The notes under the pieces were generated by a model that did no database searches, was not told the DNA's origin, and saw only the letters and a list, made by a program, of their open reading frames with translations. From assembly GCA_038040485.1 (NCBI GenBank), contig JBBPIE010000006.1, positions 142,435 to 206,434 on the forward strand: DNA of 64,000 bases, given 5' to 3'. The stretch is from Candidatus Onstottus arcticum (GTDB lineage: Bacteria > Acidobacteriota > Blastocatellia > UBA7656). This document shows positions 3,823-59,211 of this stretch, piece after piece (position 1 is the stretch's first letter; each line of letters begins with the position of its first letter). A program made the translations under genes and the position numbers.

Positions 3823-4247
3823 TCGAGGTAAGAAATCGCCGCAGTGCCAACTTCAAATTATGCGGACGCTCAACGGTCTCGTCGGCACTGCGGCGAGGGG
3901 GGATCGAAACTAGGGAGCGGTAGGTTCGATTTGGGGCGGGGCGACAGACAACTACAAGCCAATCTCGTATTAGGTCATCGCCGTTTTGAGGGAGCTGTTG
4001 TTACTGATATCAACTCGCATACCACAGCCGGCTGCGCCTGCCTTGAACCTCAACTCTTTGTGAATGCTCGCAATAAGCGGCGTCGATGGGTTAGGTCGGC
4101 TGACTGATTCAGCCAGAATGAAAGAAGCCGTTCAACGGTGTAAGCGATATTGACCGAGCGCTATCAGTGAGATGAACGATCGCGCAAAGAAGCGCGTCAC
4201 CCGATGACAAGGGCTGTCATCGCCGGGTCCCATCACGCGTCACTCCC

Positions 4248-4320
4248 TGGGAGCGCAGGCATCCCGCCTGCTGCTTGGTGGCGTGTGAGAAGAGGCAGGC
4301 AGGGATGCCTGCGCTCCCAG
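4248..4320. repeat. MITE/REP-like palindromic element, family A (termini TGGGAGCGCAGGCATCCC...GGGATGCCTGCGCTCCCA), copy 1
   Basis: A 24-nt left arm (4248-4271) and the right arm (4295-4320) are reverse complements, flanking a 23-nt loop. The element lies 6 nt downstream of the aminotransferase stop (4326-4328) and could act as its terminator hairpin. Confidence 0.65.
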
Positions 4321-4325
4321 AGGAC

Positions 4326-5540
4326 TCAACTCGTTATTGCCCGGCACATTCGCTCGACGCCTTCAGAGATCGCTTCCGGCGACTCCTTCGAGTAAGCCAG
4401 CCTCATCGTGTTTGCTCCGCTGCCGTCAACAAAAAAGGGCTGACCCGGTACGTAAGCAACACCGCCGGCGATGGCGCGGGGAAGAACTTCAGTGGCATCG
4501 ATCCGGTTTGCGAGCTCCAACAGAATGAAGAACCCGCCGATGGGCTTTGTCCACCGCGAGCCCGCCGGCGCGAAGCGCTCCAGCGCTTCGAGCATCGCGC
4601 GGCAGCGGACTTCGTAGAAACGGCGAAGCTCGGGCAGCCGCCGCTCAATCAAGCCCGAGAGAATTGCTTCAGCGACGATCGTCTGATCCAGGACACTCGA
4701 GGAGAGATCGGCCCCTTCCTTGGCTAGCTCGATCTTCTTCGCTATCGGCTCTGGCGCGCGCAGATACGCGGTTCGAATGCCGGGCGCGAGCACTTTGGAG
4801 AAAGTACCCAAATAGACGACTCGCTCCGGCCGAAGCGCCGCAAGCGGAACCAGCCGCGCCCCTTCAGATTCGAAATACAGATCGAAGTAAGCGTCGTCCT
4901 CGATGATCAACAAATCGTGCTCGTCGGCTATCTCGACAAGCTGATGCCGCCGCTCGGTCGCAAGCGTCACCCCCGAAGGGTTCTGAAAATTCGGAATCGT
5001 GTAGATGCACTTGATGCGGCGGCCTTCTCTCGAGACCTGATCGAGCTTCTCGCGGAGGTCGCCGATGACGATGCCGCCGTCATCCTGCCGCACACCGATC
5101 ATCTCAGCTTGCGAGTTGTGCAATGCAATGATTCCGCCGATGTAACTCGGAAGTTCTACTAGCGCTATGTCACCCGGATCGATGATCACCCGCGAGATCA
5201 GGTCGAGACCCTGTTGAGAGCCGCTGGTCATAATGACTTCGGCGGACGAGACATGAGTCAACCCTCGTTCACGCAGAAGTCCGACGACCGCATCAACCAG
5301 GGCGGGCTGGCCCTTGGTCGGCCCATACTGAAGGGCGACGGGTCCTCGCTCGCGGATGACTCGCGAAGCGATCTCGGCAAGCTCCTCGATCGGAAACGTT
5401 TCGGCGCTGGGAGCGCCCGCCGCCAACGAGATCACTTCCTTGTTGCCCAGCAACGCAGTGAGCTTTCGGATCGCGTTCGGACGGATCCGGCGACCCAGCT
5501 CGGAAAGCATCTCGTCGTATTGGATTTCGGTTTTAAGCAT
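4326..5540 (-). CDS. PLP-dependent aminotransferase, class I/II fold (AAT-like / 2-aminoadipate transaminase-like)
   Basis: 404 aa with ATG start. Typical aminotransferase I/II blocks are present (LAAGAPS, NPSG, LIIEDDAYFDL, TFSKVLAPGIRTAYL with the Schiff-base Lys). Confidence 0.85.
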   Translation of the reverse strand: MLKTEIQYDEMLSELGRRIRPNAIRKLTALLGNKEVISLAAGAPSAETFPIEELAEIASRVIRERGPVALQYGPTKGQPALVDAVVGLLRERGLTHVSSAEVIMTSGSQQGLDLISRVIIDPGDIALVELPSYIGGIIALHNSQAEMIGVRQDDGGIVIGDLREKLDQVSREGRRIKCIYTIPNFQNPSGVTLATERRHQLVEIADEHDLLIIEDDAYFDLYFESEGARLVPLAALRPERVVYLGTFSKVLAPGIRTAYLRAPEPIAKKIELAKEGADLSSSVLDQTIVAEAILSGLIERRLPELRRFYEVRCRAMLEALERFAPAGSRWTKPIGGFFILLELANRIDATEVLPRAIAGGVAYVPGQPFFVDGSGANTMRLAYSKESPEAISEGVERMCRAITS

Positions 5541-9062: not shown

Positions 9063-11345
9063 ATGGAAACAGTGATAACGCGAGATACGGATGTTTTGAG
9101 GGAGTACGTTGCCGCGCTCGACGCCCGAGAGCGTGGGTTTTCGCCGTTCGGGAGGCTTGCTGCAACTGTAAAGCTTGCGGCGTTAAGGCGTGAGCTGGAC
9201 GCAGCGCAGATCGACGGCACCGATGAAGATCTCGCCGCGCTGCGCCGCGAGATCGATGAGCGAATCAATCGCAGCTTCGCGCGCCGTTTCCTGGCCAGGC
9301 CGTGGGGTGCGCGGCTGTGTGTGTTCCTGTCGATAGTGCTGGCTCAGCAGCTCGCTTTGGCGTTTGTGTGGCTGCTGGCAAAGCTGTTTGTTCGCTTCGC
9401 ACCGTTGCCCAAGCGGTGGAACCCGGTGCTTCCGCACGAGCAGCCGGCTTTCCTGTGGGCGTTCATCTTCTTCTTTTTCTTCGCAGCGCCGATGACCGCG
9501 CTGTTGATTCTGTTTGGCGGGCGATTCATTCGCGCCTGGCGCAAGACCCTCGCGGCGACGCTCCTTATCTTCGCGACTTCAGCGGCGTTCACCTTTCTGG
9601 TTGTGAGAGGAAAAGAACAAACCAACCCGGTTCGGCATAACACGTCGCTCGAGCAATTCGCGAAAGAGCGCGAGTTGAGCATCGCGAACTACCGCGAATG
9701 GATGGAAGCCAACTGGCTGATGAAGGATGCGAAGCTGAAGCGTGACTACGAAGGCTACTTGCGTAACGGGCCCGGCCGATGGATTACGTCGCGATTCGAC
9801 GCCGGCAACGACGCGGCGTGGGGTGACTCGCTTGAAGTGATGAAGACCTACCTCGACGCGGGCGAAGACGAGAACGGGTTTCGAGAATGGCTGAGGTACT
9901 ATCTCGATCGCAACCGGATCTACTCGGAAGACCGCATCGATCACGAAGTGGGAACGATCACCGGCAGCGCCAGCCAACGCTTTCTTGGGGTGTGGCAGCT
10001 TGAACCGCTATTGAACGAACGCGACCGGCGGCTCTACAGCGGTTACCTTGGTTCGATCAATCACGCGATGTGGAAGTGGGGAATCGCGTCGCTGACCTTG
10101 ATGTCGCTAGCGTTCTTGATTGCTTATCTTACTGAGCCGGTGCTCCGATTGCGGGAACGCGTTTCTGGAAATGCCCGCGGCCGCGCCAGCCGAAAGGCCG
10201 CACTGGATTCCGATCAGCCAGCGACAAGCGACGGGCGACTTCCCGAGCGCCCCGATTCGTTCCCGGAGCTAAGCGAGATAACTTCCATGCCGTTCTTCGA
10301 TGCGCCGTTCAAACTGCTGGCCGGCATCCACCGCTCTTTTGTTCGGCTGGTGGTTCTCACAAGCGTCTTCGTCTTCGCGTTGTGGGCGCTCGTCTACGCG
10401 TTCGATCTTTCCGGCGCGCGGCCGAACCCGCACTCACAAGTCGCACTGATGCGTTCGCACTTGTTGTTTGGCGGCTCGGCCAATGATGCCGTGGCGCGAG
10501 CGAGTGACTCACCGGGACGGGCCTTCGCCGACCACGGACAAAGAACCGGAGACGAGACTGGTTCATCAGCCGGTGGCGGCCGCGAAGCCTTGCGCGGCGC
10601 GCGGCCCGCAAGGATTGCCGAGCTGGAGCAAGCGCTCGACGAGGCGGACTATCAAACCGAAAAACGATTCAAGGAACAATACAAGCTCAACGCCGCCGCG
10701 CGCTCGGATGTGAGCCATCTCAAGAACCTCATTTCGCAGCTTCAGCAGACGACAACAGCCCTGCCCGAACAAATCAGCGAGGTCGGCTCGCGAGCCAACG
10801 CCGCCGAAGCGCGAGCGGGTCAGATCATCAACGAAGCCACCGCCGCCAAAATGACCGCCGAGGGAGTCGCGAAACAGATCACCGCCAAGCTCGGCGAAGT
10901 CGAGAGCCGAACCGCCCGGGCATCCGAACAGATCGGCAAAGTAGAAGACCAGGCTTCGGTGCTCGCGACTCGAACCGAAGCGCTCGAGAGAGAACTCGAC
11001 CGGCGCGCGCGCCAAATCGAAGCGCGAACGGAAGAGCTCGGCGAGCGCACGGCTGGGCTCAAAGAGCGCGAAGAGCGGTTTGATCGCCTGCAACGCGCGG
11101 CGCTCACGGCGATACTCTCAGAGCTGAAAGCAAGCGTCGATGATCTGGAAAGCCGAGTCGGGTCGGGCTTCTATCGCTTCTTCAACAAGAGCGAAGCGCG
11201 CCGCGACGCAGACTCGCTTCGCCAGCGCATCACCGCGCTCGCCGCCGAGCTTCGAGATATGAACACCGAGCAGGCGAAGAAGATGGGCGAACAGCTCGAC
11301 GCGTTGAGCAAGAAGGTCGATGACATCGTGTCGCGCATCAGGTAG
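9063..11345 (+). CDS. hypothetical membrane protein with a long C-terminal coiled-coil
   Basis: 760 aa, ATG start. Several hydrophobic segments (LCVFLSIVLAQQLALAFVWLLAKLFV, FLWAFIFFFFFAAPMTALLILFGG, VVLTSVFVFALWALVYAF). The C-terminal roughly 230 aa has heptad-like Ala/Glu/Arg/Leu coiled-coil repeats. Confidence 0.7.
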   Translation: METVITRDTDVLREYVAALDARERGFSPFGRLAATVKLAALRRELDAAQIDGTDEDLAALRREIDERINRSFARRFLARPWGARLCVFLSIVLAQQLALAFVWLLAKLFVRFAPLPKRWNPVLPHEQPAFLWAFIFFFFFAAPMTALLILFGGRFIRAWRKTLAATLLIFATSAAFTFLVVRGKEQTNPVRHNTSLEQFAKERELSIANYREWMEANWLMKDAKLKRDYEGYLRNGPGRWITSRFDAGNDAAWGDSLEVMKTYLDAGEDENGFREWLRYYLDRNRIYSEDRIDHEVGTITGSASQRFLGVWQLEPLLNERDRRLYSGYLGSINHAMWKWGIASLTLMSLAFLIAYLTEPVLRLRERVSGNARGRASRKAALDSDQPATSDGRLPERPDSFPELSEITSMPFFDAPFKLLAGIHRSFVRLVVLTSVFVFALWALVYAFDLSGARPNPHSQVALMRSHLLFGGSANDAVARASDSPGRAFADHGQRTGDETGSSAGGGREALRGARPARIAELEQALDEADYQTEKRFKEQYKLNAAARSDVSHLKNLISQLQQTTTALPEQISEVGSRANAAEARAGQIINEATAAKMTAEGVAKQITAKLGEVESRTARASEQIGKVEDQASVLATRTEALERELDRRARQIEARTEELGERTAGLKEREERFDRLQRAALTAILSELKASVDDLESRVGSGFYRFFNKSEARRDADSLRQRITALAAELRDMNTEQAKKMGEQLDALSKKVDDIVSRIR

Positions 11346-11366
11346 AGGCGAGGAGCAGGCAACGAC

Positions 11367-11546
11367 AGGGCGAAAGGGCGAGGGGGCGAAGGGCGAGGGG
11401 CGAAGGGCGAAGGGGTGAGGGGCGAAGGGCGAGGGGCGAAGGGCGAGGGGCGAAGGGGCGAAGGGCGAGGGGCGAAGGGCGAGGGGCGAAGGGGCGAGGG
11501 GCGAGGGGCGAAGGGGCGAGGGCGAAGGGGCGAGGGGCGAGGGGCG
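11367..11546 (+). repeat. G-rich tandem heptad repeat (GGGCGAR)n, about 25 units; canonical G-quadruplex motif on the + strand
   Basis: Directly visible: gggcgaa/gggcgag/ggggcgaa units without interruption from 11367 to 11546. It sits between the stop of the 9063-11345 gene and the next gene. ORFs read through it give Gly/Arg- or Pro-rich low-complexity artifacts. Confidence 0.9.
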
Positions 11547-11568
11547 AGTGCTTGGTGGACAGCAATTG

Positions 11569-13272
11569 ATGACGCGGACGGAAGGAGAGCCAGAAACGGA
11601 GACGCGGCGACCCGGCGACGAAGCGCGCTCAGCCGAGGTAGCCTATGAAGGCGCTGTTAACGACGCAGCCGCTGATCGCCCCCTCCCCCCTTCGCCCCCT
11701 CTCCCCGTCGCCCCCTCACCCCCTCGACCTGTCGCGCCAAGCCGCCGGCTCCGCGCTCCTCTTGAGATCACAGCCGCGTTCCTGCTGATCCTCCTCGTGA
11801 TGGGTTGGATCGAGTTCGCCGGCCCTGCAATTCTCGACAACGACGGCTACTATCACATTCGCTGGGCGAAGATGGTCCGCGAAAGCTTTCCTCACTTGCC
11901 GCCTTTCAAAGCGCTGCCGCTGACGACGCTCGATGAGCAACACTACGTAGATCACCACTACCTTTTTCATGTCCTGCTCATCCCCTTCACGTTCGGCGAT
12001 CTACGAGTCGGCGCGAAGCTCGCAGCCGTTGTCTTCTCGAGCCTCGGGATCCTGTCGGTGTTCGCGCTGCTTGTAAGCTACCGCGTGCGATATCGGTGGT
12101 TGTGGCTCGCGCCGATGATCGCAAGCTCTGAACCGTTCCTCTATCGAATGTCGATGACGCGGGCGCCTGCGTTGTCGCTTGCTCTGTTGGGCCTCGGCGC
12201 GTACCTGGTCCTCAAGCGCAAGCCGCTCCTGCTCGCGGTGCTCTCGTTTGTGTTTGTCTGGTCGTACAGCCTGTTCCCGCTGACTATGGCTTTCGCAGTC
12301 GCGCACGCGATTGCGATTTATCTTTCCCAGCGCCGCTTAGAGTTTCGTTCAATCCTCGCAACAGGGATCGGGATCGTCGCGGGCCTGATAATCAATCCTT
12401 ATTTCCCGAAGAACCTCACGTTGTTTCGCGAGCACCTGTTGATGAAGACCGGTGGGACTTACTCGGTAGACGTCGGAGTCGAGTGGTACCCGTACGATAC
12501 GTGGGTGATCATCGGCTCGAGCGCGCTCGCATTCGGGATCTTCTTTGCGGGGCTTCTGGCGTTCGACTATCGAAGCCGCACGCGCGACCCGAAGCCGCTG
12601 TTCTTACTGCTGGTATCGACGATGTTTCTGTTGATGGCTTTCAAGTCGCGGCGCTTTATCGAGTACTGGCCGCCGTTCGCTGTCGCGTTTGCCGCGTTCA
12701 CGATCAGCCCGAAGCTCCAGACGATGAGCTTCTCGTGGATGACTCGCACGCGAGACCGCGCAATCGCGGCACTAGCGGCGGCTACCATCACTGTAGTCGC
12801 GGTTGTGAATGTTTGCTCGGCCGTGCTCCTGGCTCGCGCCGACGTTCGCTCCGAAGCCGACCCGTTCGCTTACAAGGGCGCAAGCGAATGGCTCGCCGCG
12901 AACACGCCTCCGGGTTCGATGGTGTTCAACACGGACTGGGACGACTTTCCGATGCTGTTCTACTACAACCCGAACAACACATACATAGTCGGACTTGACC
13001 CCACGTATCTATACGATCGCGACCGGCAGTTGTGGAAGCTGTACGCGGACATCACGCTCGGCAACGAAGACAACCCCGCCCCGTTGATCAGGGATCGCTT
13101 CGGCGCGGAGTACGTGTTCACAGACAACGAGCACTCGGACTTCATGCAGAATGTAGAAGAAAGCGGCGACTTCGAGAAGGTGTATGAGGATAAGTTCACG
13201 ACGGTGTTGAGGGTCCGCAAGCCTGATGATCCAAGGGCTAATGTGTCGGAAGGACAGGGAACCGCGCGATAG
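11569..13272 (+). CDS. polytopic membrane protein, putative GT-C-fold glycosyltransferase (about 10 TM + periplasmic C-terminal domain)
   Basis: ATG at 11569 (track GTG at 11548). Many TM helices. Loop motif DNDGYYHIRW after TM1 resembles the periplasmic acidic loop of GT-C enzymes. The N-terminal codons (PLPPSPPLPVAPSPP) overlap a C-rich inverted copy of the upstream G-repeat (11677-11729). Confidence 0.55.
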   Translation: MTRTEGEPETETRRPGDEARSAEVAYEGAVNDAAADRPLPPSPPLPVAPSPPRPVAPSRRLRAPLEITAAFLLILLVMGWIEFAGPAILDNDGYYHIRWAKMVRESFPHLPPFKALPLTTLDEQHYVDHHYLFHVLLIPFTFGDLRVGAKLAAVVFSSLGILSVFALLVSYRVRYRWLWLAPMIASSEPFLYRMSMTRAPALSLALLGLGAYLVLKRKPLLLAVLSFVFVWSYSLFPLTMAFAVAHAIAIYLSQRRLEFRSILATGIGIVAGLIINPYFPKNLTLFREHLLMKTGGTYSVDVGVEWYPYDTWVIIGSSALAFGIFFAGLLAFDYRSRTRDPKPLFLLLVSTMFLLMAFKSRRFIEYWPPFAVAFAAFTISPKLQTMSFSWMTRTRDRAIAALAAATITVVAVVNVCSAVLLARADVRSEADPFAYKGASEWLAANTPPGSMVFNTDWDDFPMLFYYNPNNTYIVGLDPTYLYDRDRQLWKLYADITLGNEDNPAPLIRDRFGAEYVFTDNEHSDFMQNVEESGDFEKVYEDKFTTVLRVRKPDDPRANVSEGQGTAR

Positions 13273-15286: not shown

Positions 15287-15347
15287 GTTCGCATAAACCC
15301 TGGAAGGGTGAAGGCATCAAGCCACGGGTGAGTCCGCGAACCCGTGG
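15287..15347. repeat. hairpin repeat unit (GTTCGCATAAACCC ... CCACGGGT-N10-ACCCGTGG), copy 1
   Basis: Stem CCACGGGT/ACCCGTGG (15322-15347) with loop GAGTCCGCGA, preceded by GTTCGCATAAACCC at 15287. Confidence 0.6.
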
Positions 15348-15510
15348 ACATAGGCGGCAACGGGAATCGCTAACCCGCGAAGCGGGTGGCGGCCCTTGGT
15401 TAACGAGCACTGGTGGGTCTCACAACTGAACTCATCGGTTGGTGCCGGTTGGGATTGGAACCCTTCGCGATCCCGCGTACCCGAGGGCCTGACCGTCACC
15501 CTCTTCGAGG

Positions 15511-15562
15511 GTTCGCATACCCCGGTATCGACCGATCCACGGGTTCGCGGACTCACCCGTGG
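15511..15562. repeat. hairpin repeat unit, copy 2 (same stem, loop reverse-complemented)
   Basis: GTTCGCATACCCC at 15511, then CCACGGGTTCGCGGACTCACCCGTGG at 15537-15562, the exact reverse complement of copy 1's hairpin. Confidence 0.6.
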
Positions 15563-15665
15563 CTTTACTCCGGCATCCCGTTCCGGGATTGCCAATCACG
15601 ACATCCACTCGAAGTCTTCCAGGATTTGCCAGTTCGCGACATCGATTGTTTTTGATGGCCGAGAG

Positions 15666-23876: not shown

Positions 23877-23903
23877 CAGCAGGCAGGGATGCCTGCGCTC
23901 CCA
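23877..23903. repeat. solo family-A terminal arm (GCAGCAGGCAGGGATGCCTGCGCTCCCA) 12 nt after the GH stop
   Basis: Identical to the right arm of copy 1 (4295-4320). No partner arm nearby. Confidence 0.5.
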
Positions 23904-24252
23904 CGGCATTCATTTCGCCATTGTCGAAGGAATCGGAGGGGTGCCGGATGAATCCGCGATGCTGTCCGGTGGCGGCGCGGACTTGCCACCGGCTAAATTC
24001 CGTCGCCACTCTGTGGCGGAATGGTCAGCAACTCACTAACACCACAAAACCGAAGACTCGCGGTGGAACGAATCCATAAGGCTCAGCGCGTCTCCCCTTG
24101 TCACCTTCGGCGAACGTCTGCAAAAATGCATCGAGGCCGCTGGAACGCTTTGCCCGCGCGTTGCGTTCAAGCGTTTGGCCCGTCAGCCTCAAACAGGCAA
24201 GCTCAACTGGTCGAGCCCCGAACACTCCCGATAGCACCGAAGTCAAAGCCGG

Positions 24253-27638: not shown

Positions 27639-28652
27639 CTAACCGCCCAGCGTTATCATCTCGATCTTACGGTGCTGCTTAGGCTGATACCCGCCGGGCG
27701 AATTCATCGCCTCCAGCCGTTCATCCGAGTACCTGTCCGTTCTTTCGCGCCAAACATTCGAGATCACTTCGATCAACTCGTCGTCGGTCGCGCCGCCCCG
27801 CATCAAGCCTTTCAAGTCGTGGCCGTGATCTGAAAACAAACACGTCACGAGCTTGCCGTCGGCGGTGAGTCTTGCTCGCGTGCAGCTCGAGCAGAACGGC
27901 TCGGTGACCGAAGCGATCACGCCGATGTCTCCGCCTCCGTCCGCGAATTCGTAATCCACCGAAGGCGCGCTGCCATGATCGCGGCCGACTTCTCTCAACG
28001 GGAATCGCGCGTCGATACGATCAATGATCTCCTTCTTCGAGACCATCTTCGCTGATATCCAGTTGTTCGAGTTGCCGACGTCCATGTACTCGATAAACCG
28101 CATTGCGAATCCGTTCTCTCGCGAGAACTCGACAAGCGGAATGATGTCGTCGTCGTTCAAGCCTCGCTCGATCACCGCGTTTATCTTTATCGGCCGAAGC
28201 CCCGCGCGCTTTGCGGCAAACAAACCGGCAAGCACCCGGTCAAGATCGCCTCGCTTGGTCATCTGCTTGAACTTGGGGGCGTCGAGCGTGTCGAGGCTGA
28301 CGTTGATGCGGCGAAGCCCGGCCGCTGCAAGCGACGGAGCTTGTTCCTCGAGCAATGCCCCGTTTGTTGTCAGACACATATCCTCGATGCCGGCGATCGG
28401 CGCAAGCTTGCCGATCAGTACATCGAGGTCCTTGCGCAGCAACGGCTCACCTCCGGTCAATCTGATCTTGTTGACGCCCAGCCCGGCAAACAAACTCGCC
28501 AGACGGGTGATTTCTTCGAACGTTAAGATCTCGCGCTTGTCGATCCACACGTACTCGTCGAAAGGCATGCAGTAAGTGCATCGAAAATTGCACCTGTCGG
28601 TCACAGAGATCCTCAGATCACGCACCGGACGGTTGTAGCGGTCTTGCAACAT
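27639..28652 (-). CDS. moaA: GTP 3',8-cyclase MoaA (molybdenum cofactor biosynthesis, radical SAM)
   Basis: CNFRCTYCMP radical-SAM cluster motif, GGEPLLR, C-terminal CxxC...C auxiliary cluster. Likely start is the second ATG (28650-28652, MLQDRYNRPV...) preceded by GGGAGC. The track ORF extends 4 codons further, to 28664. Confidence 0.9.
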   Translation of the reverse strand: MLQDRYNRPVRDLRISVTDRCNFRCTYCMPFDEYVWIDKREILTFEEITRLASLFAGLGVNKIRLTGGEPLLRKDLDVLIGKLAPIAGIEDMCLTTNGALLEEQAPSLAAAGLRRINVSLDTLDAPKFKQMTKRGDLDRVLAGLFAAKRAGLRPIKINAVIERGLNDDDIIPLVEFSRENGFAMRFIEYMDVGNSNNWISAKMVSKKEIIDRIDARFPLREVGRDHGSAPSVDYEFADGGGDIGVIASVTEPFCSSCTRARLTADGKLVTCLFSDHGHDLKGLMRGGATDDELIEVISNVWRERTDRYSDERLEAMNSPGGYQPKQHRKIEMITLGG

Positions 28653-28679
28653 CAAAGCTCCCATCAGCTAAGCATAGCG

Positions 28680-28708
28680 ATTCTACAGCAGAGGATGGTG
28701 TCTGGCAA
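28680..28708 (-). promoter_or_regulatory. sigma70-like promoter for moaA (TTGCCA - 17 nt - TAGAAT on the minus strand)
   Basis: -35 is the complement of 28703-28708. -10 is the complement of 28680-28685. Same architecture as the promoter at 2547-2576. Confidence 0.45.
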
Positions 28709-28714
28709 AAACTC

Positions 28715-28870
28715 CTAGTGTCCTAAAGTTGTGTTGCTCGTTCTGTCGGCGAATCGAGCAACCGCCAAGACGCCAAGAGCGCCAAGATTCTCAACGGATT
28801 CTTGGTTTAACCTTGGCGTTCTTTGCGTCTTGGCGGTTTTCCAATCGAGCAACACACTAATAGGACACTA
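28715..28870. repeat. about 155-nt nested inverted-repeat element upstream of the moaA promoter
   Basis: Outer arms ctagtgtcctaaagttgtgttgctcg / cgagcaacacactaataggacactac. Inner imperfect arms ccgccaagacgccaagagcgccaag / cttggcgttctttgcgtcttggcgg. AATCGAGCAAC occurs as a direct repeat. Confidence 0.6.
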
Positions 28871-28887
28871 CCCAAAAACTCGGTGCT

Positions 28888-28946
28888 CGTGTCGGTAGCT
28901 CGACCGTCAGGGAGAGCTCTCCCTCACGGTCGAGCTAGCTGACACG
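28888..28946. repeat. family-B 56-59-nt palindrome (TGTC(G/A)GTAGCTCGACCGTCAGGGAGAGCTCTCCCT(C/A)ACGGTCGAGCTA..GACA), copy 1
   Basis: Near-perfect self-complementary sequence between the mobB-like stop (28959) and the nested IR. Confidence 0.7.
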
Positions 28947-28958
28947 GGTTGACCCACC

Positions 28959-29633
28959 TCATCGCGCCGGGGAGGTTAGCGGCGGCGCGCTTGCCCGGTC
29001 GTAGGGCAGGATGCGTGCGTGATGAATCCGCATTACCTCTCTGGCAACAAGCGCAAGATCCCGCTCGAAGTAGATCGGTTTGCCGGTGAGGTTACCCCCG
29101 CGCTTCGACAGACGTTCTCTAAGCTCTTCGGCAATCAAGACGTCGGGCTCGCTCCTGTTCACATAGATCGCGTTCATCTTCGGCATCACTCGAACTGCGG
29201 ATGATTTGATGTCGCGAACGGGCGGGCTCGCGACCATGATCGAGTAGTCGGCATCGATGTGTTTCAGGAAGCTGCCGCCTTCGATTATCACTCCTTCGCG
29301 TTCGACTCGTGAGAGGGCGATCTTGATCCCCTCCTCGACTTGTTCATCCGTTGCGACGACCCAATGAACCATCGCCGCTCCCGCCTCCCAAAACCGGGCG
29401 GTGTCTTTACCCGGCTCGCAGGTTTCGGCTTGGCCGCTCAGCACGAGCGGACGCGCGCCCAGCAGCGGGCTCACACAGCAAGCATCCGGGTTCTTGCCGC
29501 ACGAGCGATAATGTCCGCGCGTCACCTTGATCGCTTCCCAGCCTGGGAGCATGCCCAGCAGTTTGCACACGACCGTTGTTTTACCCACATCGGACGAGAA
29601 GCCTGAGACGGAAACTATGGTTGGCCTTATCAA
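28959..29633 (-). CDS. P-loop NTPase, possibly MobB-like molybdopterin-guanine dinucleotide biosynthesis adapter
   Basis: Walker A SVSGFSSDVGKTTVV. Adjacent to and co-oriented with moaA. TTG start. Family call is tentative. Confidence 0.45.
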   Translation of the reverse strand: MIRPTIVSVSGFSSDVGKTTVVCKLLGMLPGWEAIKVTRGHYRSCGKNPDACCVSPLLGARPLVLSGQAETCEPGKDTARFWEAGAAMVHWVVATDEQVEEGIKIALSRVEREGVIIEGGSFLKHIDADYSIMVASPPVRDIKSSAVRVMPKMNAIYVNRSEPDVLIAEELRERLSKRGGNLTGKPIYFERDLALVAREVMRIHHARILPYDRASAPPLTSPAR

Positions 29634-51806: not shown

Positions 51807-52048
51807 TCAGGAAAGCAAACTGGAGTGCACTCGATTCGGCCGCGGCCGCGTATTATTGAAAGTGAGGCTGCGCATTACCGATGGGATTCTAAGCATGCAC
51901 GCTACGGCGACGCAAGTATTGCCCGCTCAATAGACGGTCGCTTGTGCAGTTACCCTCTTGATCAGCCGGCTAGGCTTAGCCGGATGGCGGTTGAGGGATA
52001 TAATGAAACCGGCTCGATGCCGGGGTAGTCTTGAAAGGAGTCGTTGTC

Positions 52049-53044
52049 ATGAAGAAGTTTGCTATCGTAGTTATGCTCGCAATGGTGCTGGTCACCGCTG
52101 GATCGAAGGTGACCACAGCGCATTCGGACGCGCAATCAAGCGGTCTGCTTCAGTTGCTTCCAGACGGTAACATCCTCGCCGTAATCGACGTTCAACGAAT
52201 GACCTCCAGCAGCTTGTGGGCGACGCTCAGCACGCAGCCAAAAGTTAAGCCGACTCTCGACAAGATGCAGTCCGATATCTCTGAGATCGGCGTTCGTTTC
52301 TCTGACATACAGACTATCGTTCTTGTCTTCTCCGGCAAAGACTTTAACGCCCCGACCGTAGCCGTGAGCGGCGGCTTCGATCAGGCCGCGGTGCTGTCGA
52401 AGCTAAGGTCAAACAGGAAAGTCAAACTCACTTTTGAGAAGTACAAGAACTACGACGTGTACAGGTCCGATGCCGTGCCGCTCCCCGCCAAAGACGACGG
52501 TGTCAAGCCGAGCGCGGGAGTACCGGCGGTCCAGACAAATGAAACGTCGTTCTGCTTCTACGATTCCAGCACGGTGGTTGTGGGCTCCGCCGCAAGCGTG
52601 CGAGCTTCAGTTGACACCAAGACCGGCGCGCGGACGAGCGTTGCTCAGAACGCCCGGCTGACCGAAGCGATCGCGCAGAACTCTTCGGCTGCCATCCGTT
52701 TCGCAATGATCATGACGCCGTCGATGGCAACAGGACTGTCTTCAAGCCAACTGCCGATTCCGGACTTTTCATCGGTGAATCTGATCTTTGGCGCGCTCGA
52801 TGTTGCGTCGGGCCTGGACCTGAATGCGACGCTGCGTAACGACACCGCCGACCACGCCAGGTCTGTAGCCGAGCGTTTAAACAGCCTGCTCACGATGGCC
52901 AGGGGATTCCTGGGCTCGGCTAGCGACGGAAAGTTCTCCTCGGTGAACGATGCGCTCAAGTCGGTGAGCATCGTCGGCAACGACATCGACGTCACGATAA
53001 CCGCCAGCCTGCCTCAGGAGTTCTTTACCCAGCTCTTTAAATAG
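52049..53044 (+). CDS. hypothetical secreted protein
   Basis: ATG at 52049 with SD AAAGGAG. Signal peptide MKKFAIVVMLAMVLVTAGSKVTTAHS. Confidence 0.6.
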   Translation: MKKFAIVVMLAMVLVTAGSKVTTAHSDAQSSGLLQLLPDGNILAVIDVQRMTSSSLWATLSTQPKVKPTLDKMQSDISEIGVRFSDIQTIVLVFSGKDFNAPTVAVSGGFDQAAVLSKLRSNRKVKLTFEKYKNYDVYRSDAVPLPAKDDGVKPSAGVPAVQTNETSFCFYDSSTVVVGSAASVRASVDTKTGARTSVAQNARLTEAIAQNSSAAIRFAMIMTPSMATGLSSSQLPIPDFSSVNLIFGALDVASGLDLNATLRNDTADHARSVAERLNSLLTMARGFLGSASDGKFSSVNDALKSVSIVGNDIDVTITASLPQEFFTQLFK

Positions 53045-53079
53045 TGTCTGGGCCGATAGTCTGCCAGCTTGAAGGAAAC

Positions 53080-53122
53080 GAGGGCCACGGAATTCGAATC
53101 GTTCCGTGGCCCTCGCTCTTTG
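53080..53122 (+). terminator. rho-independent terminator
   Basis: GAGGGCCACGGAA-ttcgaatcg-TTCCGTGGCCCTC followed by GCTCTTTGTCG. Confidence 0.7.
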
Positions 53123-53174
53123 TCGAGCTGACAACCTTCGGGTGTAGTCTGGGTATTGGTTCAGTTTGAGATTT

Positions 53175-53230
53175 GTGTCAGTAGCTCGACCGTCAGGGAG
53201 AGCTCTCCCTAACGGTCGAGCTACTGACAC
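53175..53230. repeat. family-B 56-nt palindrome, copy 2
   Basis: tgtgtcagtagctcgaccgtcagggagagctctccctaacggtcgagctactgacaca is near-identical to 28888-28946. Confidence 0.75.
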
Positions 53231-53295
53231 AAGTTTCAAAGTGAACCACCACCGTAGTCTGAGTGTCCTTGGTCTTTGGTGAAGACCATGCAGAG

Positions 53296-54153
53296 CTAGG
53301 AGCCCGGCAGCTTCAGAAGCCTTGCTGCATTGTCATGCAAGATCTTTCGCGTCACCTCGGGCGAGAATCCTCCTACCGTTTCAAAGTCCGAAAGCCACCG
53401 CGAAGGCGTGATGAACGGGTAATCGCTTCCAAACAGAATCCGGTCCTGCAGTCTACTTCGCGCTTCGTCCATTATCGTCTTCGGGATGTATTTCGGAGAC
53501 CACCCCGACAAGTCCATAAACACATTTGACTTGTGCCCAATGATCGCAAGCATCTCTTCGTGCCACGGCCATGCCGGATGCGCCCCTATTATTGTCAGCC
53601 GCGGAAAATCAGCCGCCACGTGATCCAGATAAATAGGCCGCGTGTAGTCCAACTTGACGCCCATTCCGCCCGGCGTGCCCGCACCCAAGCCATTCGTCCC
53701 GGTGTGAAACAGGGCGGGCACTCCGAGCTCCGAGATCCTCTCGTAGAGCGGATAGAACTGCTTGTCGTTTGGATAAAACGCTTGAATCCCGGGGTGAAAC
53801 TTTGCGCCAATCAGGCCAAGCTCTTTGATCGCGCGTTCCATCTCATCGACAGCGCGCTTTCCTTTCCACGGATCAACCGAAGCAAACCCCACAAAGCGCT
53901 CGGGATACTTCGCTACGACGGCGGCAACTTCATCATTGGTAAGCGGTGGCAGGCCGGTCGCTGTCTCCGCGTCCCACGCCAGCAGCACGCCAATGATATC
54001 CAAGTCGTCATAGACTTGCGCGACTTCGTCCATCTCGCGCACTGGAACCCGGCTCCGAAAAAAAGCTTCAGCGGGTTCGCGAAATGGCTTGATAGCACCG
54101 TCGAGGAAACTCGCGGTCGGTAGATGTACATGCATGTCGATCGCGTATGACAT
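53296..54153 (-). CDS. amidohydrolase-2 family metal-dependent hydrolase (ACMSD-like TIM barrel)
   Basis: ATG (complement of 54151-54153) MSYAIDMHVHLPT...FHTG...HPAWPW...FGSDYP: His/Asp metal ligands of PF04909-type amidohydrolases. The RBS AGGAAAT comes from the flanking family-A repeat. Confidence 0.8.
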   Translation of the reverse strand: MSYAIDMHVHLPTASFLDGAIKPFREPAEAFFRSRVPVREMDEVAQVYDDLDIIGVLLAWDAETATGLPPLTNDEVAAVVAKYPERFVGFASVDPWKGKRAVDEMERAIKELGLIGAKFHPGIQAFYPNDKQFYPLYERISELGVPALFHTGTNGLGAGTPGGMGVKLDYTRPIYLDHVAADFPRLTIIGAHPAWPWHEEMLAIIGHKSNVFMDLSGWSPKYIPKTIMDEARSRLQDRILFGSDYPFITPSRWLSDFETVGGFSPEVTRKILHDNAARLLKLPGS

Positions 54154-54157
54154 ATTT

Positions 54158-54376
54158 CCTGGGAGCGCAGGCGTCTCGCCAGCAGGTCTCACTACATCAA
54201 TCACTGGGCGAGATTCAGTTTCTCGCCGCAGTCTCACAACTATCAATCACGGCAGGCGAGACGCAGCTTGCCGTCCGCGGTCTCACAACTATCAATCACT
54301 GCAGGCGAGACGCAGCTTGCCGCCCGCCGGTCTCACAACTATCAATCACGGCAGGCGAGACGCCTGCGCTCCCAGG
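54158..54376. repeat. family-A MITE-like element, copy 5 (219 nt): termini CCTGGGAGCGCAGGCGTCTCGCC / GGCGAGACGCCTGCGCTCCCAGG flanking about 3.5 tandem 50-nt internal repeats
   Basis: It fills the whole gap between the M28 peptidase stop (54379) and the amidohydrolase start (54153). Internal units tctcacaactatcaatcac(g/t)gcaggcgagacgcagcttgccg(t/c)ccgc(g/c)g. Confidence 0.7.
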
Positions 54377-54378
54377 CT

Positions 54379-56055
54379 CTATTTCCCGTTATGCACGACC
54401 TCGCCTGGGAGCGGCTTGCGCGGGAGCTTCTCGGCTCGCATTGCGGTGTTGTAGACGAACGCTGCCATGATCACGGCCGCCTGCTTCATATCGCCTTCCT
54501 GAATCCGGTCGAACACATCCATGTTCGAGTGATGGGTTCGGCTCTCGTACTCAATTTCGTCCTGAATGAATTGAAAGCCCGGCAAGCCAACTCCATCGAA
54601 GGATTGGTGATCAGTCCCGCCCGTGTTCGAAACCGTAAGCGTTGTAGCGCCCATATCCTTGAACGGTGCAAGCCACGCCCGAAAGATCGGCCGCACTAAC
54701 TCATTTCCTTGCATGTAGACACCGCGAATCTTGCCCGTTCCGTTGTCCAGATTGAAGTAGCCGGCGAACCTCTCGTGCTCCGACTTCAGTGCGAGCTGCA
54801 CCGGCGGGCGAGGCGTATTGGGTTGGTCGGGAGGCTGTGGGTCTCCGAATCGCGGCTCGAGACCAAGCCGTTTGCCAAAGTGCTCGGCCACATAAGCCCG
54901 CGAGCCCAGCAAGCCTTGCTCTTCTCCGCTCCACAAACCTATGCGTATCGTTCGCCGCGGCTTCAGGCCGAGCGCTTGAAGGATCCGAACTGCTTCCATG
55001 CAGACGGCCGACCCGGCGCCGTTATCAGTCGCGCCCGTCCCCGCGTGCCACGAGTCGAAGTGTGCGCCCAACATCACCACCTCGTCCTTCAAGTCGCTGC
55101 CTGGAATCTCGGCGACTACGTTGTGACTCATCAAATCCTGGTCGTGATACCTGGCTGAGATATTTATCTCGATTTCGACAGCCGCTTTCGCGGCGATCAT
55201 CCTGATGATCCGGTTGTACTGCTCGACCCCGACGACAACCTGTGGAATGACGAACGGCGCATCCTTGTCGCGAACGTTCTTTCGCTTGTCGACGGGAGTG
55301 CCCTCCGGGTAGGAGAGAGTGGCGCCTTGCACGAAAACGGTTCCGCCGTCGCCACGGCTCGGCTCGAGCACAAGTGCCGCGCCTTCTGCGTAGATCATCT
55401 CCCACTTCTTGTTTTGAAGCGTTCGCTCCGCCAGTTGCTCGGGAGTGAAATTGCGAAACCTGCCTCGGTCTCCGGCGACGGGTGGCTCGGCGTTGGCAAG
55501 CTTCAACAAGCCTTCATCGGTTTCTCTCGTAGCCAGCGGTTCGAAGTGAGCCTTCACTTCCCGCGTTGGCGAGAGCAAAACGATCGCGCCTTTCAGCTTG
55601 CCTTTGTACTGGTCGAGATCCGCCGCCGTCTTGGCGTCGAACAGGATCGGCTTGCCTCGCAGCGCGCCGTTTGTGCTTGCTGACCACGCTTTCGGATAGG
55701 CGATCAGCGGAACGTAATAAGGCTTGATCAGCCCGGCTGAAAAGTTTTCAAGCGACCAGCCACGTCCGAACTGCCACGCCTCGAGACGCCCGTTCTGAAG
55801 TCCCCACTCTGTGAGCTTCTGTTTTGCCCACTGCTGCGCCGCGCGAATGTTCGGCGAGTTGGTGAGCCTCGCGCCTTCAACATCGGTCAAGTAGCTCAGG
55901 ATTTCCATCACCTGAGATCGCTTGAGCCCTTCTTCTTTGATCTTGTTGATTGCATCAAGGTCCACCTTTTCCTGCGGAGCCTGCCCGCGCACAGCGACGC
56001 CCGAGCCGCCCAGCGAAGCAATCACAAACAGAACAGTCAGATAACGCTTAAACAT
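54379..56055 (-). CDS. M28-family peptidase (aminopeptidase with PA domain), secreted
   Basis: ATG at 56055 with SD GAGGGAGG. Signal peptide [24 protein letters not shown]. Zinc-ligand blocks [17 protein letters not shown] and EEQGLLGS. Confidence 0.85.
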
Positions 56056-56281
56056 TTCGCCTCCCTCGTGAAATGGATTCTTATTCTTGAGTGACACCTA
56101 TCCGGGCGGCCCTCCGTGGCCGCCCCTCCACACAAACGTTTAAGTCAGTTCGCGTTTGAAGGGGCGGCCACGGAGCAACCCTGCCCGTTTTGCGGGCCAA
56201 TGCCCTTTGAGAAACCCTACCCGTAAGCTGTTGATTCCATTAAACAGCTTCCGGGTGGTTTCTAAGGAGGGCCGACCCTAA

Positions 56282-58735: not shown

Positions 58736-58923
58736 CGGGCTCTCGGCGGTTCCGCTTCCGCATAGCAAGGCGGCACGTCCGCTTCTACCGCGGCTCCTGA
58801 TTCAAACGTCGATGAGGTATTTGCAGGTCTAGCCTGCGTCTCCACTGTGCGGTGTCTTTCGGGAACGATATGCTATGCCGCGCAGGTGAATGCGTCAACC
58901 TGAGGCATACGGCCTCGCGCGCA

Positions 58924-59211
58924 CCGCGTAGCGGCCTCCTATCGATAGTTCGCGCGCTGGACCAATGTCGTGGACCGCGTAGCGGTGTCCTATCGATAGC
59001 ACGGTCATCAAGCGTCAACGCCTGGCCGCATAGCGGCTACCTGACCTTCGCGCTGACCGACCGGCATGCGTATGGATCCAGGTACCCGCTACGCGGCCCG
59101 CTCGCCCCGCGCACGTTCGGTCTATCGATAGGTAGCCGCTACGCGGCCCGCTCGCCCCGCGCACGTTCTGACTATCGACAGGTAGCCGCTACGCGGCCGC
59201 TTATCTCGACA
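58924..59211. repeat. composite repeat array: inverted/direct copies of CGCGTAGCGG-N5-CTATCGATAG plus 2.6 tandem 50-nt units, between the divergent acylase and radC genes
   Basis: 58924-58948 and 58975-58999 in one orientation. 59081-59130, 59131-59180 and 59181-59211 in the other. Contains the perfect 10-bp palindrome CTATCGATAG three times. Confidence 0.75.

Follow-up and report, generated by a model that had tools for sequence, protein, structure and literature searches.

Two palindromes of Candidatus Onstottus arcticum as copies of a probable IS1-family MITE

Why nearly the same long palindrome should stand at two intergenic sites of one genome is the question raised by a 64,000-nt stretch of DNA from Candidatus Onstottus arcticum, which was analysed as a whole and is called the window below. 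The palindrome had been described as a fully self-complementary unit of 56 nt, present in two copies about 95% identical, and had been read either as a REP/MITE-like lineage or, possibly, as the target of a dimeric DNA-binding protein, repeated at two loci. These readings lead to different expectations as regards the ends of the unit, its occurrence in relatives and the elements with which it shares sequence, and it is on these three points that the present analysis bears.

The two palindromes and the complete unit at copy 2

Both palindromes were found, each centred on GAG/CTC (the slash marking the dyad) and given without strand. Copy 1 is degenerate and occupies 57 nt at positions 28889-28945 (dyad 28916/28917; core profile E 1.4e-19), and copy 2, which reads GTGTCAGTAGCTCGACCGTCAGGGAGAG and then, across the dyad, CTCTCCCTAACGGTCGAGCTACTGACAC, occupies 56 nt at 53175-53230 (dyad 53202/53203; nhmmer E 2.7e-22). 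The measured identity, 96% over 49 gapless nt, agrees well with the value given earlier. Full self-complementarity, by contrast, was an overstatement: both palindromes are near-perfect, but copy 2 has one core mismatch (C opposite A, at the ninth position from the dyad), and copy 1 carries two mismatches in its arms as well as one inserted nucleotide. A 25-nt half-site matched four times in the window, once per arm per copy, and a 36-nt central pattern matched twice, with a chance expectation of 0.00 for both in dinucleotide-preserving shuffles; no third core copy was detected in the 64-kb window by means of an HMM profile of the core. Folded as RNA, copy 1 reached -49 to -55 kcal/mol and the extended form of copy 2, described below, -76 to -82.3 kcal/mol, with z-scores of -7 to -15 for the two copies (-15 at -82.3 kcal/mol).

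It should be noted that position 9 of the stem, counted from the dyad (28908/28925 and 53194/53211 in the window), is unpaired in 15 of 20 copies, any other pair being unpaired in at most 5. This mismatch is of two main types, C/A and C/C, so that descent from two master copies, rather than selection, may account for it.

The original prediction had placed the two copies just past gene ends, and this placement was indeed confirmed. Copy 1 lies 13 nt beyond the stop of a mobB-like ORF (28959-29633, minus strand), which gave weak MobB profile matches and whose homologs are named "molybdopterin-guanine dinucleotide biosynthesis protein" by JGI. On its other side, 224 nt downstream of it on the minus strand, begins moaA (27639-28664, minus strand; Radical_SAM and Mob_synth_C domains), with a promoter-like site of its own, TTGCCA-17-TAGAAT (28708-28680), which is kept in relatives. 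No terminator-like site was called at copy 1, where no T-run directly follows the stem. Copy 2 lies 130 nt past ORF 52031-53044, for which no Pfam or NCBIfam match was found, and beyond a terminator-like hairpin (53079-53115) that is followed by a T-run; the spacer is convergent, its other side being the 3' end of a minus-strand amidohydrolase gene (Amidohydro_2). The product of ORF 52031-53044 shows 100% identity to AABO41_08085, an NCBI protein of an Acidobacteriota metagenome-assembled genome, and the nearest homologs with a name belong to Blastocatellia.

At copy 2, the predicted 56-nt unit proved to be a real core palindrome but an under-call of the element, since the actual palindrome is 102 nt long (53152-53253, no strand assigned) and includes distinct ends framed by a duplication. 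Its 51-nt arms are 88% complementary, its extent is in line with the RNA fold and with the empty site of three relatives (L162-L164, see below), and it is laid out as a terminal repeat, a 4-nt spacer, the 56-nt core, a 4-nt spacer and a second terminal repeat. The left terminal inverted repeat, GGTATTGGTTCAGTTTGAG (19 nt, 53152-53170, plus strand), agrees with the consensus GGTAGTGGGTCAGTTTGAA at 16 of 18 aligned positions, and the right one, GGTGGTGGTTCACTTTGAA (53235-53253, minus strand), at 16 of 19, with p of about 0.001 in each case, for the left repeat against window background. Each end of the element is abutted by GTAGTCTG, a direct repeat matching at 8 of 8 positions (53144-53151 and 53254-53261, plus strand), which has the form of a target-site duplication. 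The sole ORF that overlaps the 102-nt unit (52877-53239, minus strand, 120 aa) is antisense to the end of the upstream gene and to the terminator hairpin; it is taken to be spurious and the unit to be devoid of coding capacity.

Less is preserved at copy 1. A possible terminal-repeat remnant, TGAGGTGGGTCA (28950-28961, minus strand), is weak (p of about 0.03), and this remnant (GTGGGTCA) stands 5 nt off the core, which is the usual spacing. On the opposite side, neither a repeat remnant nor a clear duplication was seen; a candidate duplication matched at 4 of 8 positions only and was discarded as not significant. The putative remnant at 28950-28961 contains TGA, the stop codon of the mobB-like ORF, and most mobB-like ORFs of close relatives stop 4-7 residues sooner; the insertion may be the source of the present stop codon.

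Empty sites in relatives and dispersed copies in metagenomes

According to the original prediction, two copies only, conserved in position across relatives, would point to locus-specific regulation. Strain comparison gave a different picture, with both sites empty in syntenic relatives. The site of copy 1 is empty in L039 (87% aa identity), where the stop codon is followed by 12 nt and the conserved moaA promoter. In L038 (83%), it holds a different palindrome, resembling the one at 56112-56175 of the window; in L034-L036 (77%), the element is absent and yet other repeats are present, and in L031/L032 (88%), the site is occupied by an IS110-family gene. The exact empty site and the duplication of copy 1 are undefinable because the gene 3' end and the spacer have diverged too far. 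The site of copy 2 is empty in L162-L164, which have the same gene order (79-81% aa identity) and keep the terminator hairpin. The spacer measures 251 nt in the window and 130-141 nt in these three syntenic relatives, an excess of 110-121 nt, to be compared with the 110 nt expected from a 102-nt unit and its 8-bp duplication; divergence of the spacers makes a single GTAGTCTG unreadable at the empty site.

The mobB-to-moaA spacer (28665-28958 in the window, 2922-3157 in L038, 4528-5059 in L034 and 1924-2992 in L031) is an insertion hotspot, in which an IS110-family gene, a tandem array of 14-nt units (TGCGTCGTGTTTAG) or small palindromes of different kinds are found, depending on the lineage. 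In these Blastocatellia, this spacer serves as a landing site for several small, mutually unrelated repeats. In the window, a separate inverted-repeat element of 159 nt (28714-28872; inner palindrome 28760-28838) lies between copy 1 and the conserved moaA promoter, directly upstream of the latter, and is framed by a perfect 8-bp direct repeat, CAAAAACT (28706-28713 and 28873-28880). The first seven bases of its minus-strand end, GGTAGTGTCC, are GGTAGTG, as in the IS1-family repeat treated below. This element is absent from relatives, and no further copies were found in the window and the metagenome loci.

More palindromic or inverted-repeat families occur in the window, at 58916-59198, 15296-15597, 4246-4339 and 54149-54385, 23879-24023, and 56112-56175. 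Some of them contain GTAGC; four recur in the core-bearing contigs L018, L023, L020 and L025, and one in L038. Units of 7-8 nt (GGGGCGA / GGGCGAA) also form a long, G-rich tandem array at 11333-11576, with C-rich complementary stretches at 11680-11706.

Outside the window, a half-site scan of 185,579 species-representative genomes returned four single, non-palindromic chance matches, and no reference genome with the family. The same kind of scan in JGI metagenomes returned 26 contigs, most of them from four samples. Clear palindrome copies, retrieved through exact identity over 20 nt of one core arm, were present in 19 of these (one contig each, with flanks all different), and degenerate copies in two more, L012 being divergent and L024 having a partial tandem arrangement. 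Several core-bearing contigs share other repeat families of the window, which indicates that they come from related organisms; none of them is orthologous to the window. The copies are intergenic and stand in tandem, convergent and divergent spacers, beside unrelated genes, 11 of 23 lying at most 35 nt from a stop codon.

The terminal repeat was recovered among these metagenome copies as a 19-nt consensus, GGTAGTGGKTCAGNTTGAR, adjoining the core, with a repeat-to-core spacer of 1-5 nt in most copies and of 14-18 nt in L009 and L030. Of 22 copies aligned to GGTAGTGGGTCAGTTTGAA, 9 reached p ≤0.01 at proper spacing: copy 2 of the window, L009 and L023 on both sides, and six more on one side. Several further copies retain partial repeat remnants, often internally deleted, and recognisable repeats are present in about half of the copies overall. 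In L005, L015, L020, L024 and L027, there was no duplication and no repeat match better than p of about 0.3, save one located 58 nt from the core (L024). Duplications of 8 bp were found at the predicted register in L023 (CGCTAGCG, 8/8), L009 (7/8) and L026 (7/8). Conservation falls steeply beyond GTGTCAG...CTGACAC. An orthologous pair of contigs, L016 and L022, with 81% nucleotide identity along 2.3 kb, has the element at the same place, from which it follows that copies can persist for a long time; their cores are 92% identical, and their arms differ by indels.

Probable IS1-family elements with the same ends

The terminal-repeat motif alone was found in at least 120 contigs of IMG/VR. Among the IMG/VR matches listed, the consensus is GGTAGTGGGTCAGTTTGAA, inverted motif pairs stand 0.29-4.8 kb apart, and perfect 8-bp duplications in the same register were present in L043, L050, L066, L067, L096, L099, L126, L074, L057 and L151. 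In the larger of these listed elements, a transposase gene lies directly beside one repeat, with at least 29 homologous ORFs. The core was absent from the transposase-bearing elements among the matches listed; viral-contig scans for the core, and for half a core beside the repeat, returned zero matches and no core-bearing parent element.

The transposase is probably a distant member of the IS1 family. Its best NCBIfam match was transpos_IS1 (E 3.7e-15, 56 bits, below the curated cut-off of 100), and its best Pfam match DDE_Tnp_IS1 (E 1.4e-4, 22.7 bits, below the cut-off of 24.1). JGI and NCBI label its close homologs "IS1 family transposase", and many of these carry a precomputed PF03400 hit. 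Comparison with E. coli InsB gave 40% identity, with only 40 aa aligned, and the ends of E. coli IS1A start with GGTAATG and GGTGATG, in family resemblance to GGTAGTG. No IS1-family transposase gene was found in the window or in about 0.24 Mb of related metagenome loci. The literature on the repeat string yielded a sole match, an unrelated paper containing the 12-mer.

Two of the elements with perfect 8-bp duplications have cargo of their own. That of L096 (1262-6058) consists of the specificity subunit of a type I restriction-modification system and an N6-methylase, and that of L099 (2534-5182) of a HigB-like toxin and its HTH/M78 partner. A further arrangement was observed in L024 (2737-2836), where the IS1-like terminal repeat recurs, as GGTGGTGGATCAGTTTGAG, on either side of an inner palindrome of another sequence, GTTCAGAGTACAAGC...GCTTGTACTCTGAAC; as these ends enclose another palindrome, interchangeable centres are hinted at, that is, modular MITEs with shared ends.

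Origin and significance of the palindrome

The IS1-type ends, the 8-bp duplications, the dispersal of the copies and the empty sites in relatives together make it probable that the palindrome forms the interior of a MITE, non-autonomous and belonging to an IS1-family clade. Matching terminal repeats, an 8-bp duplication, a non-coding unit of 102 nt, dispersed copies and presence/absence polymorphism at orthologous sites are all present, and the same rules of end and duplication hold on transposase-bearing elements. From a mechanistic point of view, an IS1-family DDE transposase, made elsewhere in the cell, would bind both terminal repeats and insert the unit at a staggered 8-bp cut, the repair of which would leave the 8-bp direct repeat; we infer mobilisation in trans in this host. 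Copy 2 (53152-53253) would thus be an intact insertion between two convergent genes, and copy 1 (28889-28945) an older insertion just behind the mobB-like gene, with one arm gone and little left of the other. Copy 1 and the other arm-less copies presumably descend from arm-bearing ones, in line with the pair L016/L022, whose arms have diverged by indels around well-kept cores. Long perfect palindromes are prone to deletion in bacteria, so that the arms would erode first. Perfect two-fold symmetry suggests, moreover, that one end of an element folded back to give rise to the MITE, an origin that would be supported if an IS1-family element ending in GGTAGTGG(G/T)TCAG ran on into GTGTCAGTAGCTCGACCGT.

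Conservation is far stronger in the core than in the arms, which is unexpected for the neutral decay of one unit. Ascertainment accounts for part of this excess, since a copy was retrieved only if 20 nt of a core arm matched exactly; selection, gene conversion between cores or a spread of the core on its own may possibly contribute to it. It is unlikely, yet deserves consideration, that the 56-nt core is a unit of its own, maintained by selection, gene conversion or a second spreading mechanism and captured by IS1-family ends. The elements would then be modular, with shared ends and exchangeable centres, and decay of MITEs would not suffice to explain the arm-less copies.

Among known systems, the proposed MITE comes closest to DDE-derived MITEs of the IS1 family, of which E. 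coli IS1 is the type member. Like these, it is small, non-coding, multi-copy and intergenic, it has ends that start with GGT(A/G)(A/G)TG as in IS1A, a fixed 8-bp duplication and insertion polymorphism, and it shares its ends with autonomous elements that encode a probable IS1-family transposase. Duplications of IS1 are 8-9 bp long according to ISfinder descriptions. Unlike these MITEs, the whole unit here is a near-perfect palindrome of 102 nt with a highly conserved 56-nt centre. The transposase clade, for its part, stands far from classical IS1: the protein is encoded by a single ORF and remains under the curated profile cut-offs, and many members carry cargo genes. Correia/NEMIS and ERIC MITEs are about 100-150 nt long, form long hairpins, insert between genes and may be co-transcribed with their neighbours, Correia elements having a TA duplication. 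The present family shares their length class, long hairpin and intergenic position, but differs from them in its unrelated sequence, its duplication and its hosts. In Acidobacteria, such as Koribacter versatilis, repeat families have been derived from the long terminal inverted repeats that flank TIRYT (tyrosine-transposase) genes (PMC3733652). These occur in the same phylum and are likewise moderately abundant, partly self-complementary and single or paired; they are, however, tied to Y1 transposase genes, whereas ends and duplication here fit a DDE transposase of the IS1 family, and no Y1 gene was seen.

The other half of the REP/MITE-like label leads to the REP/REPIN systems, in which a GTAG hairpin would be moved as single-stranded DNA by a RAYT, the IS1-like arms being incidental; we hold this to be very improbable here. 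GTAG...CTAC does stand at the foot of the inner stem, the copies are extragenic and often 9-35 nt past a stop codon, some are arm-less and without duplication, the stem is mismatched at position 9 in most copies, and an orthologous copy has persisted between lineages at 81% nucleotide identity. However, most copies keep some terminal-repeat remnant, and the intact ones carry both DDE-type terminal repeats and 8-bp duplications. To our knowledge, Y1 transposition (IS200/IS605, RAYT) yields neither of these. RAYT genes are single-copy, and neither the motif (regex) nor a homolog of E. coli RayT (phmmer) was found in six-frame ORFs of the window and of part of the metagenome loci. As regards structure, imperfect hairpins are typical of REPs (PMC3733652), and GTAG REPs and REPINs are, like the present copies, extragenic GTAG palindromes, mostly downstream of genes, with an imperfect stem and long persistence (PMC3733652, PMC3116915). 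They are nevertheless defined by a short stem-loop, one end of which bears an unpaired tag (PMC3733652), whereas GTAG is here paired with CTAC inside the stem, symmetrically on both strands, the stem has 26 bp instead of the 5-13 bp of known GTAG families, and terminal repeats with 8-bp duplications are present in intact copies. The MITE part of the label therefore stands, given 19 further copies, the empty sites and the repeats and duplication of copy 2, and the REP part is not supported, given the duplications, the paired GTAG and the lack of a RAYT match in the window and in part of the metagenome loci.

A core kept by selection, either as the binding site of a dimeric protein or as an RNA hairpin acting as 3'-end stabiliser or attenuator, appears quite improbable as well. 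Such a function would account for a conservation far above that of the arms, including 92% identity between orthologous copies with indel-diverged arms, for a very stable RNA fold (-49 to -82 kcal/mol, z -7 to -15) and for the proximity of 11 of 23 copies to stop codons (≤35 nt). Against it, both window sites are empty in syntenic relatives, the family occupies tandem, convergent and divergent spacers beside unrelated genes, copy 2 lies beyond an existing terminator, covariation is no higher than in shuffles (91.5% of cells paired versus 91.3%), and the conservation of the core is in part due to the search pattern. A dimeric-protein binding site repeated at two loci is accordingly not supported as the reason for the presence of the palindromes, the sites being empty in relatives and the contexts unrelated, although some protein may bind the core. 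The stem is not a canonical intrinsic terminator, as no T-run follows it. The terminator reading was rejected, with no terminator-like site at copy 1 and copy 2 past a separate terminator. At the gathering score, Rfam identified only two tRNAs in the window, and a permissive Rfam search around copy 2 returned only microRNA-hairpin look-alikes, far below threshold. Any effect of the hairpins on neighbouring transcripts is speculative, including that of the copy 1 stem, which stands between the mobB-like gene and moaA.

That the palindromes reflect chance similarity, or a fold-back chimera of assembly, is hardly conceivable: shuffles gave an expectation of zero matches, the palindrome recurs in 19 further contigs from several samples, and gene order on both sides is normal, as in relatives. 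What might suggest an artefact is that the assembly of L165 breaks 1 nt past the dyad; both chance and artefact were nonetheless ruled out by the shuffles and the 19 further contigs. This break, at L165 11155 (window 53203), belongs to an independent short-read assembly of a sequencing run and indicates that copy 2 is difficult for de Bruijn assemblers. Contig breaks at the dyad in short-read assemblies are explained by the palindrome.

With the MITE reading, knowledge of the mechanism of MITEs is unchanged. For annotation, both palindromes are to be treated as copies of a mobile element rather than as sites that regulate the molybdenum-cofactor genes or ORF 52031-53044. The terminal repeat GGTAGTGGGTCAGTTTGAA and the 8-bp rule are now defined for a large and poorly described IS1-family clade, whose members in environmental contigs carry restriction-modification and toxin-antitoxin cargo, and the repeat provides a probe to delimit such transposons, as well as their miniature derivatives, in metagenomes. 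The palindromes themselves represent a new MITE family of a lineage sampled only poorly so far, an ordinary kind of genomic parasite, scattered in uncultured soil Blastocatellia (Acidobacteriota).
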